A stretch of 37,755 bases of DNA from an uncultured bacterium (GTDB taxonomy: Bacteria; Patescibacteriota; Microgenomatia; UBA1400; PJMF01), in assembly GCA_903959355.1 (NCBI GenBank), contig CAJBWJ010000058.1, forward strand, positions 1 through 37,755, in the 5' to 3' direction. This document shows positions 537 through 6,188 of this stretch, in pieces. Under the pieces are notes generated by a model that was given only the letters and a program-made list of their open reading frames with translations, made no database searches and was not told the DNA's origin. Numbering within the stretch: the stretch's first letter is position 1; every line of letters begins with the position of its first letter. The position numbers and the translations under genes are program-made.

Positions 537-1298
537 TTATGACAAACTTTCAAAATATTCTGCCAAGCCATCGTTTTTAACATCACCTATAATTTGATCG
601 GCTAATTCTTTCAGATCAGGAACAGCATTGCCCATGGCTATTTTGAGTCCAACTCCAGCAAATAAATGAAAATCATTATTACCATCACCAACGCCAATTG
701 AATTATTTTTACTGACGGCAGTTTTCTCCAAAAGAATCGCTATGGCATGTTCTTTGGTAGCCTGAGCGTTGGTTATGTGCAAATCACGACAGCCTTTAAT
801 CTTGTCGAAGACCATCGTGCAAATAACATTTGGTATTTGAGAAATTTTTTCTTGAATAATAAAGGCTATTTTCTCTGGAACAAAAACTTGCTCTAAAAAA
901 TAAACTTCTTCTGGTAAAACAAAAGTGTCTGCAGATAAACCACCATTGAAGTAATCATCTTCGCTGTAGTCGTTGCACAAAATCTTGTACTTCGAATACT
1001 CAGACATGATTTGTAAAATTTGTTTGGCTGCTGCTTTTTCAATATTATGTTGCCAGATAATTTCACCAGTTTTTGGTAAACAAATCCTCGTTCCACCAGA
1101 AATGACGCAAGGATCTTCTAACTCTAAATCTTGTAATAAATCTTTAGCAAAAGTCCAAGACCTGCCAGTCGCAGCACAAATAAAATAACGATCTTCTAAA
1201 TTTCTAATCGCTTCTTTTAATCTTTGGCTGGCTAACTTCTGATCTGGAGAATCAATAGCTGTACCATCTAGATCGATAATGATGGCTTTATTCTTCAT
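537..1298 (-). CDS. Cof-like HAD-superfamily hydrolase (subfamily IIB)
   Basis: Motif I DLDGT, motif II ATGR, conserved K in ATKEHA, motif IV GDGNND, AMGNA. Start overlaps the ileS stop (ATGA). Confidence 0.9.
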   Translation of the reverse strand: MKNKAIIIDLDGTAIDSPDQKLASQRLKEAIRNLEDRYFICAATGRSWTFAKDLLQDLELEDPCVISGGTRICLPKTGEIIWQHNIEKAAAKQILQIMSEYSKYKILCNDYSEDDYFNGGLSADTFVLPEEVYFLEQVFVPEKIAFIIQEKISQIPNVICTMVFDKIKGCRDLHITNAQATKEHAIAILLEKTAVSKNNSIGVGDGNNDFHLFAGVGLKIAMGNAVPDLKELADQIIGDVKNDGLAEYFESLS

Positions 1299-4147
1299 AT
1301 TTTAAGCTTAGCTATTTCACCAGCAACGATTTTAGTATTCGTTTTCTCTTCAATTTCTTGTTTAAAAGCTTCTGGATAGTTCGGTAATTCGACTTCAACA
1401 ATTTTATTCATATCCAAAAGAGCCTCTTTGCGTAAATCTTGAATTTGACGAATTATTTCTCTGGCTTCACCTTCAGCTCTGAGTTCATCGGTCAAATTGA
1501 AATCATAATCCACTCTTAAATCACCAGAGTTATCTAGCCATTCAATTTTTTTGACATTGAGCTCCATCAGAAGAAGTGCTTCTAACTCGTCGCGATATTC
1601 AAGCTCAGCAAAACCACTTACTTTCAAACTAGCTAAAGGCTGACGAGCCTTAAGCTGCTTCTCTCGACGCAAGCTATGACCAAGTTCAACAATCTTACGA
1701 GCCAAATCCATGGCAGTTTCTAATTTTTGATCATGAAATTTTTCCTGATATTCTGGGAAAGCTTGCAAGTGAATAGAATTTTCTTCACTAATCATATTGT
1801 GATGAATCAGTTCGGTAAAAAATGGCACTATCGGCGCAAAAGCCTTAGCCAATTCATAAATCACCGTCGCAAAAACTTGACTAACTTCTTGATTGTCGCT
1901 CGCTTTAAGGCGCTCGCGACTCAAACGCAAATACCAAGTCGACAATTCATCGATGAATGGAGCCAATAAGCGACTGGCCTTCATCACATCATAATTATCG
2001 AGATTTTGTCTTAGCTCTTCAATGACGCTTTGCAAACGACTCAGAATCCAACGATCAAGTAAATTACTTGGCAATTTGTCGGCAGCTAAGTCGAAGAAAC
2101 CAGCTTTTTGATCACTAAATGATTTATAGAAAGCCAAAACATTCCACCAAATCACAAAAACACGACGACGCAAATTAGCTACGTCTTTCTCGTCAAAATT
2201 AAGAGTTTCTGCCTTAACTGCAGGAGATGACATCATGTACAAACGCAATGCATCAGCTCCATACTTTTCCAAAATTGCTCCTGGCTCTGGATAATTTTTG
2301 AGACGCTTGCTCATTTTTTTACCATCAGATGCCATGATTAAACCAGTGCACATTACATTTTTGAAAGCACTAGTTTCTTTTTCACTACCCAAAGTTAGAG
2401 CAGTTGCCAAAACATGCAAAGTGTAAAACCAACCGCGAGTCTGATCTTGACCCTCAGAAATAAAATCGGCAGGGAAAGAACGCTTAAAAGCTTCTTGATT
2501 GGCAAATGGATAATGCAACTCACCATAAGGCATGGAGCCTGATTCAAACCAACAATCCAAAACTTCAGGAATGTGATGATAAGTTTTGCCGTCTTTTTCA
2601 AAAGTAATTTTATCAACAATGTGTTTGTGCAAATCGCTAACTTTCTGACCAGAAAGAGTTTCTAATTCTTCAATAGAACTGATACAAACAAAATCACCGC
2701 TTTCACTCTCCCAAATTGGTAGAGGAGTGCCCCAATAACGATTGCGAGAAATTGCCCAATCACGAGCACCCTCAAGCCATTTGCCAAAGCGACCATGCTT
2801 GATATGATCAGGCTGCCAATTAACCTTTTCGTTGTTGGCCAAAAGCTGATCTTTGAAGGAGCTGACTTTGACATACCAACTATCAGTAGCGTAATTAAGC
2901 AGAGGAGTATCACAACGCCAACAATGTGGATAACTGTGCTCGATTTTTTTCTTGGCAAAAAGCGTCCCACGAGCGGCTAAATATTTAATAATCTCAACAT
3001 CAGTCATGGTTGGATTATCTTTTGGTTTGACTTCCATCCCAGCAAAATCTGTCACCTCAGCTGTGAAACGACCATCCATACCCACATGTTGCAACAGCTC
3101 AATACCTTCAGCTTTGCCAACTTTATAGTCATCTTCACCAAAAGCTGGAGCAATGTGGACGATGCCAGTACCTTCATCCAAAGTCACAAAATCTTCAGTG
3201 ACAATACGGAAAGCTTTGGCCCAATTAGCAAAATATGGGAAAACTGGAGTGTAGGTCAGGCCAGCTAATTTGGAACCCATAAATGGCTCGCCAACTAATT
3301 CGAAATCTTTATCAACAATTACTTCAGCCAAACGAGTTTTAGAGACAATTATCAAACCCTCTTCGCCAACAATTTTAACCAAAACATATTCAAGATCCGG
3401 ACCAACTGCCAATAGAACATTGCCTGGCAAAGTCCAAGGAGTGGTAGTCCAAGCGACGGCATAGATTTTCTCGCTGGTTTCTACACCAAGAGTGGCGGCA
3501 GCGTTAACCAATTCGAATTTAGCAAAAACAGAAATATCTTTAACATCTTTGTAACCTTGAGTCACTTCAAAATTGGAAAGCGGAGTTCCACAACGAGGAC
3601 AGATGTGCATGGACTTATGGCTTTTGTAAATCAGGCCCTTATCCCAAAGCTTACGGAAAACCCACCAGACGGTTTCCATGAATTCTTTATCCATAGTTTT
3701 GTAGGCGTGATCCATGTCAATCCAGCGACCAATACGACGAATGGTGGTTTTCCACTCCTCGGCATATGTCAGAACAGTTTGACGACATGCTTCGTTAAAT
3801 TTATCCACACCATAGGTCTCAATGTCTTTTTTGCTATCAAGATTGAGTTGTTTTTCGATGATATTTTCGACTGGTAGACCATGACAATCCCAACCCCAAA
3901 CACGGCGAACTTTCTTGCCCAGCATGGTCTGATAACGAGGAATTAAATCCTTGATAATAGACTGCATTAAATGACCATAATGAGGCAAACCAGTGGCAAA
4001 TGGAGGACCATCATAGAAAGAGAATGAATTATCTTCGCTTCTTTGATTGACTGATTTCTGGAAGGTTTGATCTTGATCCCAAAAGGCGAGAATTTCTTGT
4101 TCTAATTCTGGAAAATTTGGTACTTGTCTAAAATCTTTGATTTTCAT
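1295..4147 (-). CDS. ileS: Isoleucyl-tRNA synthetase, type 2 (IleRS2)
   Basis: DGPPFATGLPHYGH (HIGH), GWDCHGLP, WTTTPWTLP editing domain, GTGIVHIAP, DWAISRNRYWG, EGQDQTRGWF, KMSKRLKNY. SD AAGGA at 4156-4152. Confidence 0.97.
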   Translation of the reverse strand: MKIKDFRQVPNFPELEQEILAFWDQDQTFQKSVNQRSEDNSFSFYDGPPFATGLPHYGHLMQSIIKDLIPRYQTMLGKKVRRVWGWDCHGLPVENIIEKQLNLDSKKDIETYGVDKFNEACRQTVLTYAEEWKTTIRRIGRWIDMDHAYKTMDKEFMETVWWVFRKLWDKGLIYKSHKSMHICPRCGTPLSNFEVTQGYKDVKDISVFAKFELVNAAATLGVETSEKIYAVAWTTTPWTLPGNVLLAVGPDLEYVLVKIVGEEGLIIVSKTRLAEVIVDKDFELVGEPFMGSKLAGLTYTPVFPYFANWAKAFRIVTEDFVTLDEGTGIVHIAPAFGEDDYKVGKAEGIELLQHVGMDGRFTAEVTDFAGMEVKPKDNPTMTDVEIIKYLAARGTLFAKKKIEHSYPHCWRCDTPLLNYATDSWYVKVSSFKDQLLANNEKVNWQPDHIKHGRFGKWLEGARDWAISRNRYWGTPLPIWESESGDFVCISSIEELETLSGQKVSDLHKHIVDKITFEKDGKTYHHIPEVLDCWFESGSMPYGELHYPFANQEAFKRSFPADFISEGQDQTRGWFYTLHVLATALTLGSEKETSAFKNVMCTGLIMASDGKKMSKRLKNYPEPGAILEKYGADALRLYMMSSPAVKAETLNFDEKDVANLRRRVFVIWWNVLAFYKSFSDQKAGFFDLAADKLPSNLLDRWILSRLQSVIEELRQNLDNYDVMKASRLLAPFIDELSTWYLRLSRERLKASDNQEVSQVFATVIYELAKAFAPIVPFFTELIHHNMISEENSIHLQAFPEYQEKFHDQKLETAMDLARKIVELGHSLRREKQLKARQPLASLKVSGFAELEYRDELEALLLMELNVKKIEWLDNSGDLRVDYDFNLTDELRAEGEAREIIRQIQDLRKEALLDMNKIVEVELPNYPEAFKQEIEEKTNTKIVAGEIAKLKI

Positions 4148-4173
4148 TGTTTCCTTATATATTTTTTTGCTAC

Positions 4174-4222
4174 AAAAAAAGCCTGCCTAAAAACGAACCA
4201 AAAGTGTCGTTTCTAAGCAGGC
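4174..4222 (-). terminator. Intrinsic terminator (attenuator) of the ileS T-box leader
   Basis: 16-bp stem GCCUGCUUAGAAACGA / UCGUUUUUAGGCAGGC (two G-U pairs), 10-nt loop, followed by U7. Its 5' GCCU is shared with antiterminator helix A1. Confidence 0.9.
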
Positions 4223-4366
4223 TTATCTTATAGAAGATAAAGGTACCAGCCTTGCTAATACTTAATTTAAGTGATTACGGACTCACCCGGCTTGGTCTAA
4301 TCAATTCTTGCTTTAAGACAAGAAAATTTCTTCAAGCACCTTGCCATTGATAGTGGCTAAAACGGT
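4174..4366 (-). ncRNA. T-box riboswitch (tRNA-Ile sensing) leader of ileS with ultrashort Stem I
   Basis: Minus strand: Stem I ACC..GCCA-CU(AUC)AA-UGGC..GGU (4366-4338); Stem II GCUUG-AAGAA...AUUAGAC-CAAGC (4337-4290); Stem IIA/B CGGG-UGAG-UCCG-UAA-UCAC (4289-4271); antiterminator AGGC-UGGUACC-U-UUAUCUU/AAGAUAA-GCCU (4252-4219); overlapping terminator. Confidence 0.88.
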
Positions 4367-4383
4367 TTTAATTTAACAAAGGA

Positions 4384-4392
4384 ATTATAGCA
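4384..4392 (-). promoter_or_regulatory. Extended -10 sigma70 promoter of the ileS leader
   Basis: TG-C-TATAAT on the minus strand, 17 nt upstream of Stem I. Confidence 0.75.
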
Positions 4393-4422
4393 CAAAGATA
4401 GCTCACTAAACTAAATTTAAAA

Positions 4423-4866
4423 TCATCCGACTTGCTTTGCAACAGTAGTATGCGCTTCTAACAAAATCGGTTTATTTTCCCTAGAAATTAATTTCAATTG
4501 TATCTGTACCCGGCCAGAATTAAAGACAACCTGAACTTCTTCAGATTCCAGTGGCCATTTGATAGTTTGCTGCACTGTTTGATGAGAGTGAACCGCATTG
4601 TTGAAACTAATAGCTAAGCTTTCGCTTTCTGATTCTAAATAAAAAGACAGTCCTCCCACAAGTTCTCTTCCACGTAAGTTCCAAACCTTATTATCAAAAG
4701 CCATTTCTTTTCTAAAGAAATATTCATCTTTAATAACTGGGCTTTCTTCTTCTTTTTTTCCCGTTAATAGAGCCTTGATTTTAGTGCCAATGGCACGCGT
4801 TTTCTCTGGGATATAATCAAAAATTACTTCTGCTATATCATCAATTACGTCTCCTTCTCTTTTCAT
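4423..4866 (-). CDS. Hypothetical protein (147 aa)
   Basis: ATG with strong SD (AGGAG), 20 nt after the ftsZ stop; fills the intergenic space; no motif recognised. Confidence 0.7.
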   Translation of the reverse strand: MKREGDVIDDIAEVIFDYIPEKTRAIGTKIKALLTGKKEEESPVIKDEYFFRKEMAFDNKVWNLRGRELVGGLSFYLESESESLAISFNNAVHSHQTVQQTIKWPLESEEVQVVFNSGRVQIQLKLISRENKPILLEAHTTVAKQVG

Positions 4867-4886: not shown

Positions 4887-6188
4887 CTATCTATCTCTCA
4901 AAAAAGCTGGCACATCAAATTCAGCAAATTCATCATCGCTGTCGATGTCTTCTTTTTTGTCACTCTTGTCATCACGCTTTTGTTCTTCTTTTTTCTTCAA
5001 GTTAAAGAGAGCAGAGCGAACGAAAGGATTGTGACTTTCTTGTGGCTCTTCTTTTTTAGGCTTAGCCGGCATGATTTGAGGCTGAGTAAAACCACTTGGA
5101 GCACGGTCAATTTTATCTTCCTCTTCATCTTCTTCATTTTGCTTACTGTAATTAGCGGTTGGACCAGTCATTTTACGACGAGATTCTCTGCCATAAGCCC
5201 CGAACATAGCTCTAGGACCAGAACCTGGATAATTGTCACCAAAACCAGTGGCAATGACGCTAATCTTGATCTTAGAACCCATGTTTTCGTCAATCGTAGC
5301 GCCAAAAATGACGTTAGCATCTGGATCGGAGCTGTCAGCAATCACTGAAGAAGCATCGGAAACTTCGCTCATGGTCATATCTGGACCACCAGTAATGTTG
5401 TAAAGAATACCCTTGGCCCCATCGATGGAAACTTCCAAAAGTGGGGAAGAAACAGCCATACGAGCAGCAGTCACAGCGCGATCTTCTCCAGAAGCCTCAC
5501 CAATACCCATCAAAGCTGAACCGGAATCAATCATGATAGTTTTTACATCAGCAAAATCAACATTTATCATGCCTGGAACAGTGATTAAATCGGAAATACC
5601 TTTGACACCCTGGCCGAGAACATTGTCAGCCAAACGGAAAGCATCGATAAAAGTCATTTTTTTATCGACTACTTCAAGTAAACGTTGGTTTGGAATCACA
5701 ATTAAAGTGTCGACAGTATCACCAAGAGCTTCAATGCCTTCGTCAGCGGTCTGCATGCGACGAATGCCTTCAAAAGCAAATGGTTTGGTGACCACGGCTA
5801 CAGTCAAAGCACCAGCTTCTTTGGCAATTTCAGCGATGATAGGGGCCGCACCAGTACCAGTGCCACCACCCATACCAGCAGTAATGAAAACCATATCAGT
5901 ATCGAAAAGCAGATCCTTAAGCTTCTCGCGACTCTCTTCAGCAGCAGTGCGACCAACTTCTGGATCAGCACCAGCACCAAGACCACGAGTAAAATTGCTA
6001 CCAATTTGCATTTTAGTTTCAGCTTTGGAAGTTAAAAGTGCTTGAGCATCAGTATTAACAGTGATAAATTCCACACCACTAATTTGTCTAGATAGGACCA
6101 TGGAATTGACAGCATTGCTACCGCCACCACCAACACCAATGACTTTGATTTTGGCAAAAGTTGTATTTGAAGGTTTAACGAGTCCCAT
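4887..6188 (-). CDS. ftsZ: Cell division GTPase FtsZ
   Basis: [17 protein letters not shown], tubulin signature [10 protein letters not shown]7 loop INVDFAD, C-terminal peptide DVPAFLR. Confidence 0.98.

Follow-up and report, generated by a model that had tools for sequence, protein, structure and literature searches.

A compact T-box-like leader with an ultrashort Stem I and a putative transcription terminator upstream of ileS in a Patescibacteriota genome

The window analyzed here is a 37,755-nucleotide (nt) stretch of DNA from an uncultured bacterium of the Patescibacteriota (lineage Microgenomatia; UBA1400; PJMF01), contig CAJBWJ010000058.1 of assembly GCA_903959355.1. On its minus strand, a leader at 4392-4174, running from an extended -10 box through a tract of seven U (U7), lies directly upstream of ileS, the isoleucyl-tRNA synthetase (IleRS) gene. 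Judged from its sequence and its relatives, this leader is very probably a T-box riboswitch, with transcription attenuation as its means of controlling ileS. An earlier sequence-only reading of the window made four core claims: that the leader is a T-box, that an ultrashort Stem I holds its Ile specifier, that its platform is a terminator and that the genome belongs to the candidate phyla radiation (CPR). All four are supported by the present analysis. The coordinates given in that reading were all correct when the minus strand was read again. The anatomy of the leader, its conservation, its covariation, its fit to the tRNA and the mutual exclusion of its two folds were established from sequence. 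The case for a T-box is built on sequence comparison and not on the motif by itself. UGGUACC alone is weak evidence, as it gives five strand-matches at three places in the window, and the aptamer part alone folds no better than shuffled sequences (z -1.05).

Architecture of the leader

The gap between a 147-amino-acid (aa) open reading frame (ORF) at 4423-4866 and ileS at 1295-4147 is 275 nt long, with both genes on the minus strand. The regulated gene, ileS, encodes 950 aa from an ATG at 4147, preceded by the Shine-Dalgarno (SD) sequence AAGGA at 4156-4152. It was identified by NCBIfam TIGR00392, with 917.8 bits against a cut-off of 621.4, and its product matches Pfam tRNA-synt_1 and Anticodon_1. 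The proposed extended -10 promoter, TG-C-TATAAT (4384-4392), was read directly, with TG at 4392-4391, then C, and TATAAT at 4389-4384, and -10-like hexamers are similarly placed in relatives. A simple sigma-70 consensus scan did not list this box, as a good -35 element is absent. Transcription probably starts a few bases downstream of it.

Stem I (4338-4366) is only 29 nt long and consists of ACC/GGU, a kink-turn (K-turn)-like internal loop, GCCA/UGGC and a 7-nt apical loop, CUAUCAA, in which AUC occupies 4351-4349 and the next base is A. Stem II (4290-4337) has the base helix GCUUG/CAAGC and an S-turn-like internal loop in which AAGAA (4332-4328) faces AUUAGAC (4301-4295), both strands being purine-rich. 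The IIA/B element follows at 4270-4289. It contains Stem IIA, CGG/CCG (4289-4287 with 4280-4278), and the pseudoknot IIB, AGU (4283-4281) with ACU (4272-4270), in a register supported by covariation. A purine-rich single-stranded linker, UAAAUUAAGUAUU (4257-4269), with no Stem III hairpin, leads to the antiterminator (4216-4256). The antiterminator is made of helix A1, with a GGC/GCC core that can be extended to AGCA-GGC/GCC-UGCU, the T-box bulge UGGUACC (4248-4242) and helix A2, UUAUCUU/AAGAUAA. The T-box sequence core GG-UGGUACC is kept. Folded alone, this region adopts the A1/bulge/A2 shape at -10.7 kcal/mol, and this fold, together with covariation in relatives, upheld the antiterminator of the sequence-only reading. 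The element measures about 150 nt between the start of Stem I and the antiterminator's 3' end.

The predicted intrinsic terminator (4174-4222) is a hairpin of 16-17 base pairs (bp), 4222-4207 with 4196-4181, followed by U7 at 4180-4174. The hairpin at 4222-4181 folds at -28.8 kcal/mol (z -8.0), and none of 200 shuffled sequences folded as well. It was not listed by a simple consensus scan because its loop is longer than 8 nt; the minus-strand hairpin that the scan did list is a spurious one inside the antiterminator. Positions 4222-4216, the 3' strand of A1, also begin the terminator's 5' arm, so that antiterminator and terminator are mutually exclusive. Both energies fall within the ranges that TBDB gives for T-boxes. 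The hairpin ends at least 17 nt before the SD and leaves it uncovered. These results agree with the earlier proposal of a 16-bp terminator plus U7 that excludes the antiterminator and leaves the SD free.

Detection in related genomes

The Rfam T-box model RF00230 gave no match in the window at its gathering cut-off. Across the 864-kb host genome, its best match scored 11.3 bits and lay away from the leader. The permissive Rfam matches on the leader itself were chance hairpins only, such as mir-559 and STnc370. None of 20 related leaders reached the gathering cut-off of 93 bits. When the model was run permissively, 11 of the 20 were matched end to end at 25.7-59.7 bits, with E-values down to 1.7e-10, and in these alignments 73-74 distal Stem I model positions are replaced by 4-6 nt. 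These sub-threshold matches tie the related leaders to the T-box family through an independent model. Pipelines that rely on RF00230 leave such leaders unannotated, because its cut-off was reached in none of the 20 tested. The TBDB translational model was run on Actinobacteria and on class I matches with a truncated Stem I (PMC7778990). A leader undetected by RF00230 would not have entered that class I route.

For comparison, the N-terminal 300 residues of IleRS were searched in 60 relatives, with matches in 60 of 61 genomes, and the DNA upstream of ileS was read at the 30 best loci. UGGNACC was found upstream of ileS at 22 of them; of the other eight, two are cut by the contig end, three have a tRNA gene upstream and three lack the motif. 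Three leaders were dropped before alignment: L019, whose 5' part is cut by a contig end, and L015 and L022, which have no or short upstream DNA. When the 21 complete ileS leaders were aligned, all the parts recurred, and compensation in the helices could be seen by inspection. A covariance model, R1 (158 positions, 25 pairs), was built from these leaders.

R1 searches were confined to genomes of the order and the phylum. In the window's own genome, only this site was matched. At E-values up to 1e-3, R1 matched 111 of 151 genomes of the order, which include 91 of 124 good-quality genomes, 69 of 95 genera and 18 of 19 families. In an even sample of the phylum, 34 of 151 genomes were matched at E-values up to 1e-5, and in named public records matches were found at 22 of 80 ileS loci. 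A model built from Patescibacteria ileS leaders, as the sequence-only reading had advised, thus recovers the same architecture across order and phylum. The assignment of the window to a CPR-like genome also stands. By IleRS, the closest named relative in public records is Candidatus Pacebacteria UBA6180, with 88% identity, and further named relatives are metagenome-assembled genomes of Paceibacterota, Woesebacteria, Uhrbacteria, Magasanikbacteria, Moraniibacteriota and 'Patescibacteria group'.

Covariation of the helices

Base pairs were counted in 77 leader matches aligned to R1 (alignment A6). Standard pairs fill 90.9% of 1917 cells, compared to 30-44% after sliding the partners by 1-3 columns, and to 64.9% in a shuffled control. 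Compensatory change, on both sides of the pair, was seen in 26 of 28 pairs. The lower and upper helices of Stem I are paired in 89.1% and 91.3% of cells, and all seven of their pairs have changed on both sides, which bears out the two helices of the 29-nt Stem I. The base helix of Stem II is paired in 97.4%, with all five pairs compensatory. U71, A72 and A74 (4299, 4298, 4296) and A41 and A42 (4329, 4328) of its internal loop are invariant in the 21 leaders, consistent with the S-turn-like loop that had been proposed. Helices A1 and A2 are paired in 86.6% and 90.2% of cells, and nine of their ten pairs are compensatory.

Two details of the sequence-only reading were revised. The IIA/B pseudoknot itself held, with Stem IIA paired in 99.6% of cells. 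The proposed register, GUGA/UCAC, did not: pairing reaches only 57.2% of its cells, and the G-C pair in its middle occurs in just 8 of 75 rows. The conserved IIB register is AG(U/C)/(A/G)CU (4283-4281 with 4272-4270), paired in 76.8% of cells with two of three pairs compensatory. It agrees with the three-base pairing of linker and loop described for the ileS T-box of Mycobacterium tuberculosis (PMC11297988). The second detail was a tiny Stem III, CUUAA-A-UUAAG. It is paired in 42.0% of cells compared to 45.0% in shuffles, and it overlaps both a pseudoknot strand and the conserved single-stranded AAUUAAGUA linker. In 51 of the 77 leaders, at most 8 nt separate the AAGUA linker from A1, which leaves them without a Stem III. 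In the window element, Stem III is absent, not tiny.

Stem I of 29 nt has no long distal part with the distal loop and AG bulge that serve the tRNA elbow. Between the end of the -10 box and Stem I lie 18 nt, and the upstream ORF stops 57 nt short of that stem. Among the 77 leaders, 65 have a -10-like hexamer in the 40 nt upstream of the element, compared to 11 of 55 in a control window placed 100-140 nt upstream, and such a placement leaves a long Stem I no room. The K-turn position is occupied by an internal loop, at which many relatives have GA opposite GA. Ultrashort Stem I elements have been described from translational T-boxes, mostly of Actinobacteria (PMC7583486).

Specifier codon and discriminator base

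The tRNA-Ile(GAU) of the genome has the discriminator A73, and its CCA end is not encoded. This tRNA fits both the specifier AUC and the bulge UGGU, whose U complements A73. Specifier, discriminator and downstream gene, therefore, all agree on Ile, as first claimed. Among ileS leaders, AUC was found in the loop of 51 of 53 by eye and of 44 of 53 by an automatic hairpin picker; both counts are given because the picker chose the wrong hairpin in several leaders. The two leaders L070 and L079 show no clear AUC hairpin. The fourth base of UGGN is U in 49 of 53 ileS leaders. Loss of the AUC loop or of UGGN in homologues would have spoken against the sequence-only reading, and both were found to be conserved.

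Of 20 R1 matches outside the ileS search, 19 precede a synthetase gene, identified by NCBIfam as argS, cysS, aspS (two types), serS, trpS, valS or ileS. The twentieth, L064, which has a longer ORF, groups in the valS cluster. The loop codon tracks the synthetase: Val leaders carry GUC, Asp leaders GAC, Ser leaders AGC or UCC, and the Trp, Cys and Arg leaders UGG, UGC and CGC, respectively. In two aspS leaders (L071, L078), GAC stands at the very start of the match. The UGGN base changes with the gene as well: it is U in seven of eight Val leaders and in the single Arg leader, C in all five Asp leaders, all five Ser leaders and the single Trp leader, and A in the single Cys leader. These bases are complementary to the discriminators of the window genome's tRNAs: the Ile, Val and Arg tRNAs have A73, the Asp, Ser and Trp tRNAs G73, and the Cys tRNA U73. 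Overall, the bulge fits N73 of the cognate tRNA class in 69 of 74 typed leaders; three of the others are ileS leaders with C and two lack the exact motif. Judged by these matches, the compact module is not specific to ileS and precedes at least seven synthetase genes across the order. It is the general T-box form of the order, of which the window genome retains only the ileS copy.

Two side observations concern Ile decoding. The genome has a second Ile tRNA, with anticodon UAU (G000 contig C77:2918-2992), and only two CAU tRNAs, which suggests that AUA is read without a lysidine-modified tRNA. The AUC specifier would sense only the GAU species. Separately, a site at L103:1501-1659 (minus strand) has an AUC loop and UGGUACC and is followed by a 185-aa ORF (L103:931-1485) that is not ileS and belongs to no NCBIfam family.

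Expression platforms in relatives

A run of at least five U occurs within 80 nt downstream in 72 of the 77 leaders. In 55 of the 77, a hairpin of -8 kcal/mol or lower abuts the U tract, and 47 of these 55 hairpins overlap the 3' strand of A1. The terminator finder starts past the bulge and so misses platforms with a 5' arm upstream; those were examined by folding. The SD lies under no conserved helix in the related leaders.

Variant platforms were also seen. In the phylum-level leaders L093, L092, L098, L100, L102, L101, L105 and L108, the U tract is preceded by an outer helix with its 5' arm upstream of A1; the predicted terminator encloses the whole antiterminator and does not compete with its 3' strand. 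In L073, L074, L069, L075, L064, L028 and L099, the UGGNACC bulge itself forms the predicted terminator's 5' arm and pairs with a GGGUGCU-like strand before the U tract. In such leaders, the tRNA 3' end would block the terminator directly. One ileS leader of the same type, L109:1501-1646 (minus strand), has no U run, and its antiterminator is followed at once by an AGGAG SD; this leader may be a translational variant inside the phylum.

Proposed mechanism and alternative explanations

Characterized T-boxes are the source for what is proposed here on tRNA binding, charge-state sensing and termination. Transcription would begin just past the TGCTATAAT box, and the nascent leader would fold a compact decoding module of Stem I, Stem II and the IIA/B pseudoknot. 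Stem I would offer AUC in its apical loop, the S-turn of Stem II would back the codon-anticodon helix, and the module would bind the anticodon of tRNA-Ile(GAU). If that tRNA is uncharged, its 3' ACCA would pair with the bulge UGGU and stabilize A1 and A2. The stabilized A1 would keep its 3' strand from the terminator, and polymerase would continue into ileS. With charged tRNA, or with none, the far more stable terminator would form and transcription would stop at U7.

Several observations weigh against this mechanism. The element has neither the elbow-contacting distal Stem I nor Stem III, which a review describes as an integral part of the T-box discriminator, indispensable to it and to binding of the tRNA 3' end (PMC7583486). 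The same review names a G-U wobble at the base of A2 as the main steric sensor; the bulge-adjacent A2 pair is U-A in 40 and C-G in 22 of 66 lettered rows, and U-G in only one. The K-turn position of the window leader reads UA/AA, not GA/GA as in many relatives. RF00230 gave no match to this leader (4100-4480) at E-values up to 10. Three ileS leaders, L021, L059 and L075, carry UGGC, and the tRNA-Ile(GAU) in their genomes (G019, G107 and G067), as also in G099, has A73. A further leader, L050, has UGGC on a contig that ends before any downstream ORF, and a tRNA-Ile search in its genome (G037, 88% complete) gave no match. Finally, the alignment used for the pair counts was fitted to the supplied structure and so favors that structure. 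Despite this, a real covariation signal is indicated by the low values of the slid controls and by the variety of pair types.

One alternative is a mainly translational action of the same T-box, as in Actinobacteria, with the hairpin serving as a sequestrator or a stability element. The decoding module is indeed of the type described for translational ileS T-boxes, and the distant relative L109, with its SD right after the antiterminator, would fit such a platform. In a fold of the whole leader, UUCCUU (4383-4378) pairs with the SD as AAGGAA (4156-4151). This would add a translational layer if UUCCUU were transcribed, but it lies just past the -10 box and is probably upstream of the transcript start. 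A sequestrator is also at odds with the U7 that follows the hairpin at once, with the distance of at least 17 nt between hairpin and SD, and with the U tracts of nearly all relatives. We consider this explanation very unlikely.

The leader could also be a decayed T-box remnant that no longer responds to tRNA, its hairpin being a constitutive attenuator or the terminator of the upstream gene at 4423-4866. The element's lack of a distal Stem I, of Stem III and of the G-U sensor pair would agree with decay, as would the blindness of RF00230 to the leader and the reduced genome. Decay, however, would not have preserved 26 of 28 pairs by compensatory change, or a codon and UGGN base matched to seven synthetases across order and phylum. 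A 16-bp terminator acting constitutively in front of an essential single-copy gene would also be harmful, and decay is, therefore, very improbable. The last alternative, some other leader such as a leader-peptide or protein-mediated attenuator with a chance likeness to T-boxes, could draw on the three places of UGGUACC in the window and the unremarkable aptamer fold, but it was already disfavored and has next to no credibility: related leaders match RF00230 over its whole length except the distal Stem I, codon and discriminator fit the tRNA, and the only short ORF read in the leader (AUG at 4347) has a single Ile codon.

Comparison with known T-boxes

The actinobacterial ileS T-boxes (M. tuberculosis, Nocardia farcinica; class II in TBDB), whose ultrashort Stem I structures are PDB 6UFG and 6UFM as cited in PMC7583486, regulate the same gene. 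Going by their published descriptions, they share with the window element a short Stem I that presents AUC in its apical loop, the S-turn of Stem II, a IIA/B element formed by three loop bases and the linker, and the UGGN bulge; the base of their Stem I is of the K-turn type, and the window element has a K-turn-like internal loop there. They differ in that the output in the window is a terminator plus U7 instead of an SD sequestrator, with the SD at 4156-4152 outside the helix. The window element also lacks Stem III, its host belongs to the Patescibacteria, and the compact module in relatives also precedes valS, aspS, serS, argS, cysS and trpS.

With the Firmicutes transcriptional T-boxes (RF00230; Bacillus subtilis tyrS type), the element has in common an antiterminator that shares its 3' strand with a stronger terminator plus U tract, as well as Stem II, IIA/B and the core GG-UGGUACC. 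In contrast to them, about 73 distal Stem I positions, which form the stack on the tRNA elbow, and Stem III are missing. The glyQS-type T-boxes are likewise naturally reduced and transcriptional (PMC11297988, PMC7583486). As described there, they lack Stem II and IIA/B and retain a long Stem I and Stem III, so that the window element is reduced in the opposite way. An ultrashort Stem I with a transcription terminator is atypical according to the T-box reviews. A full-text literature search found no paper linking T-boxes to Patescibacteria or CPR, although an unseen paper or database table may list them.

We tentatively propose, as a possibility a little short of even, that Patescibacteria carry a phylum-wide class of minimal, transcription-terminating T-boxes without elbow contact, Stem III or G-U sensor, in front of at least seven synthetase genes. 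T-boxes are a model for how one RNA reads another. A working rule in the field is that transcriptional switches need a long Stem I for fast tRNA capture, and that holding and inspecting the tRNA 3' end depends on Stem III. This rule would be put to a direct test by a large natural set of terminator-type T-boxes in which both parts are missing. If such minimal T-boxes sense charging during transcription, parts deemed required for kinetic capture and aminoacyl sensing are dispensable. Another possibility is that the missing parts have been replaced by a protein, by a slow or pausing polymerase, or by a different sensing geometry; the variant platforms of distant relatives hint at the last of these. 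A T-box of about 150 nt would also serve structural and synthetic work, and bacteria with reduced genomes would be seen still to regulate synthetase genes by tRNA charging. The leaders passed over by RF00230-based pipelines expose a gap in annotation.

Gene context

The IleRS encoded at 1295-4147 has a C-terminal DUF5915 domain and scores about 700 bits against the MupA and MupB models, far under their cut-offs. For these reasons, it looks like the eukaryote-like type of the enzyme. Upstream of the leader, the product of the 147-aa ORF matches no Pfam or other known family. The ileS promoter lies within the 57 nt that follow this ORF, and beyond the ORF lies ftsZ (4887-6188, minus strand).

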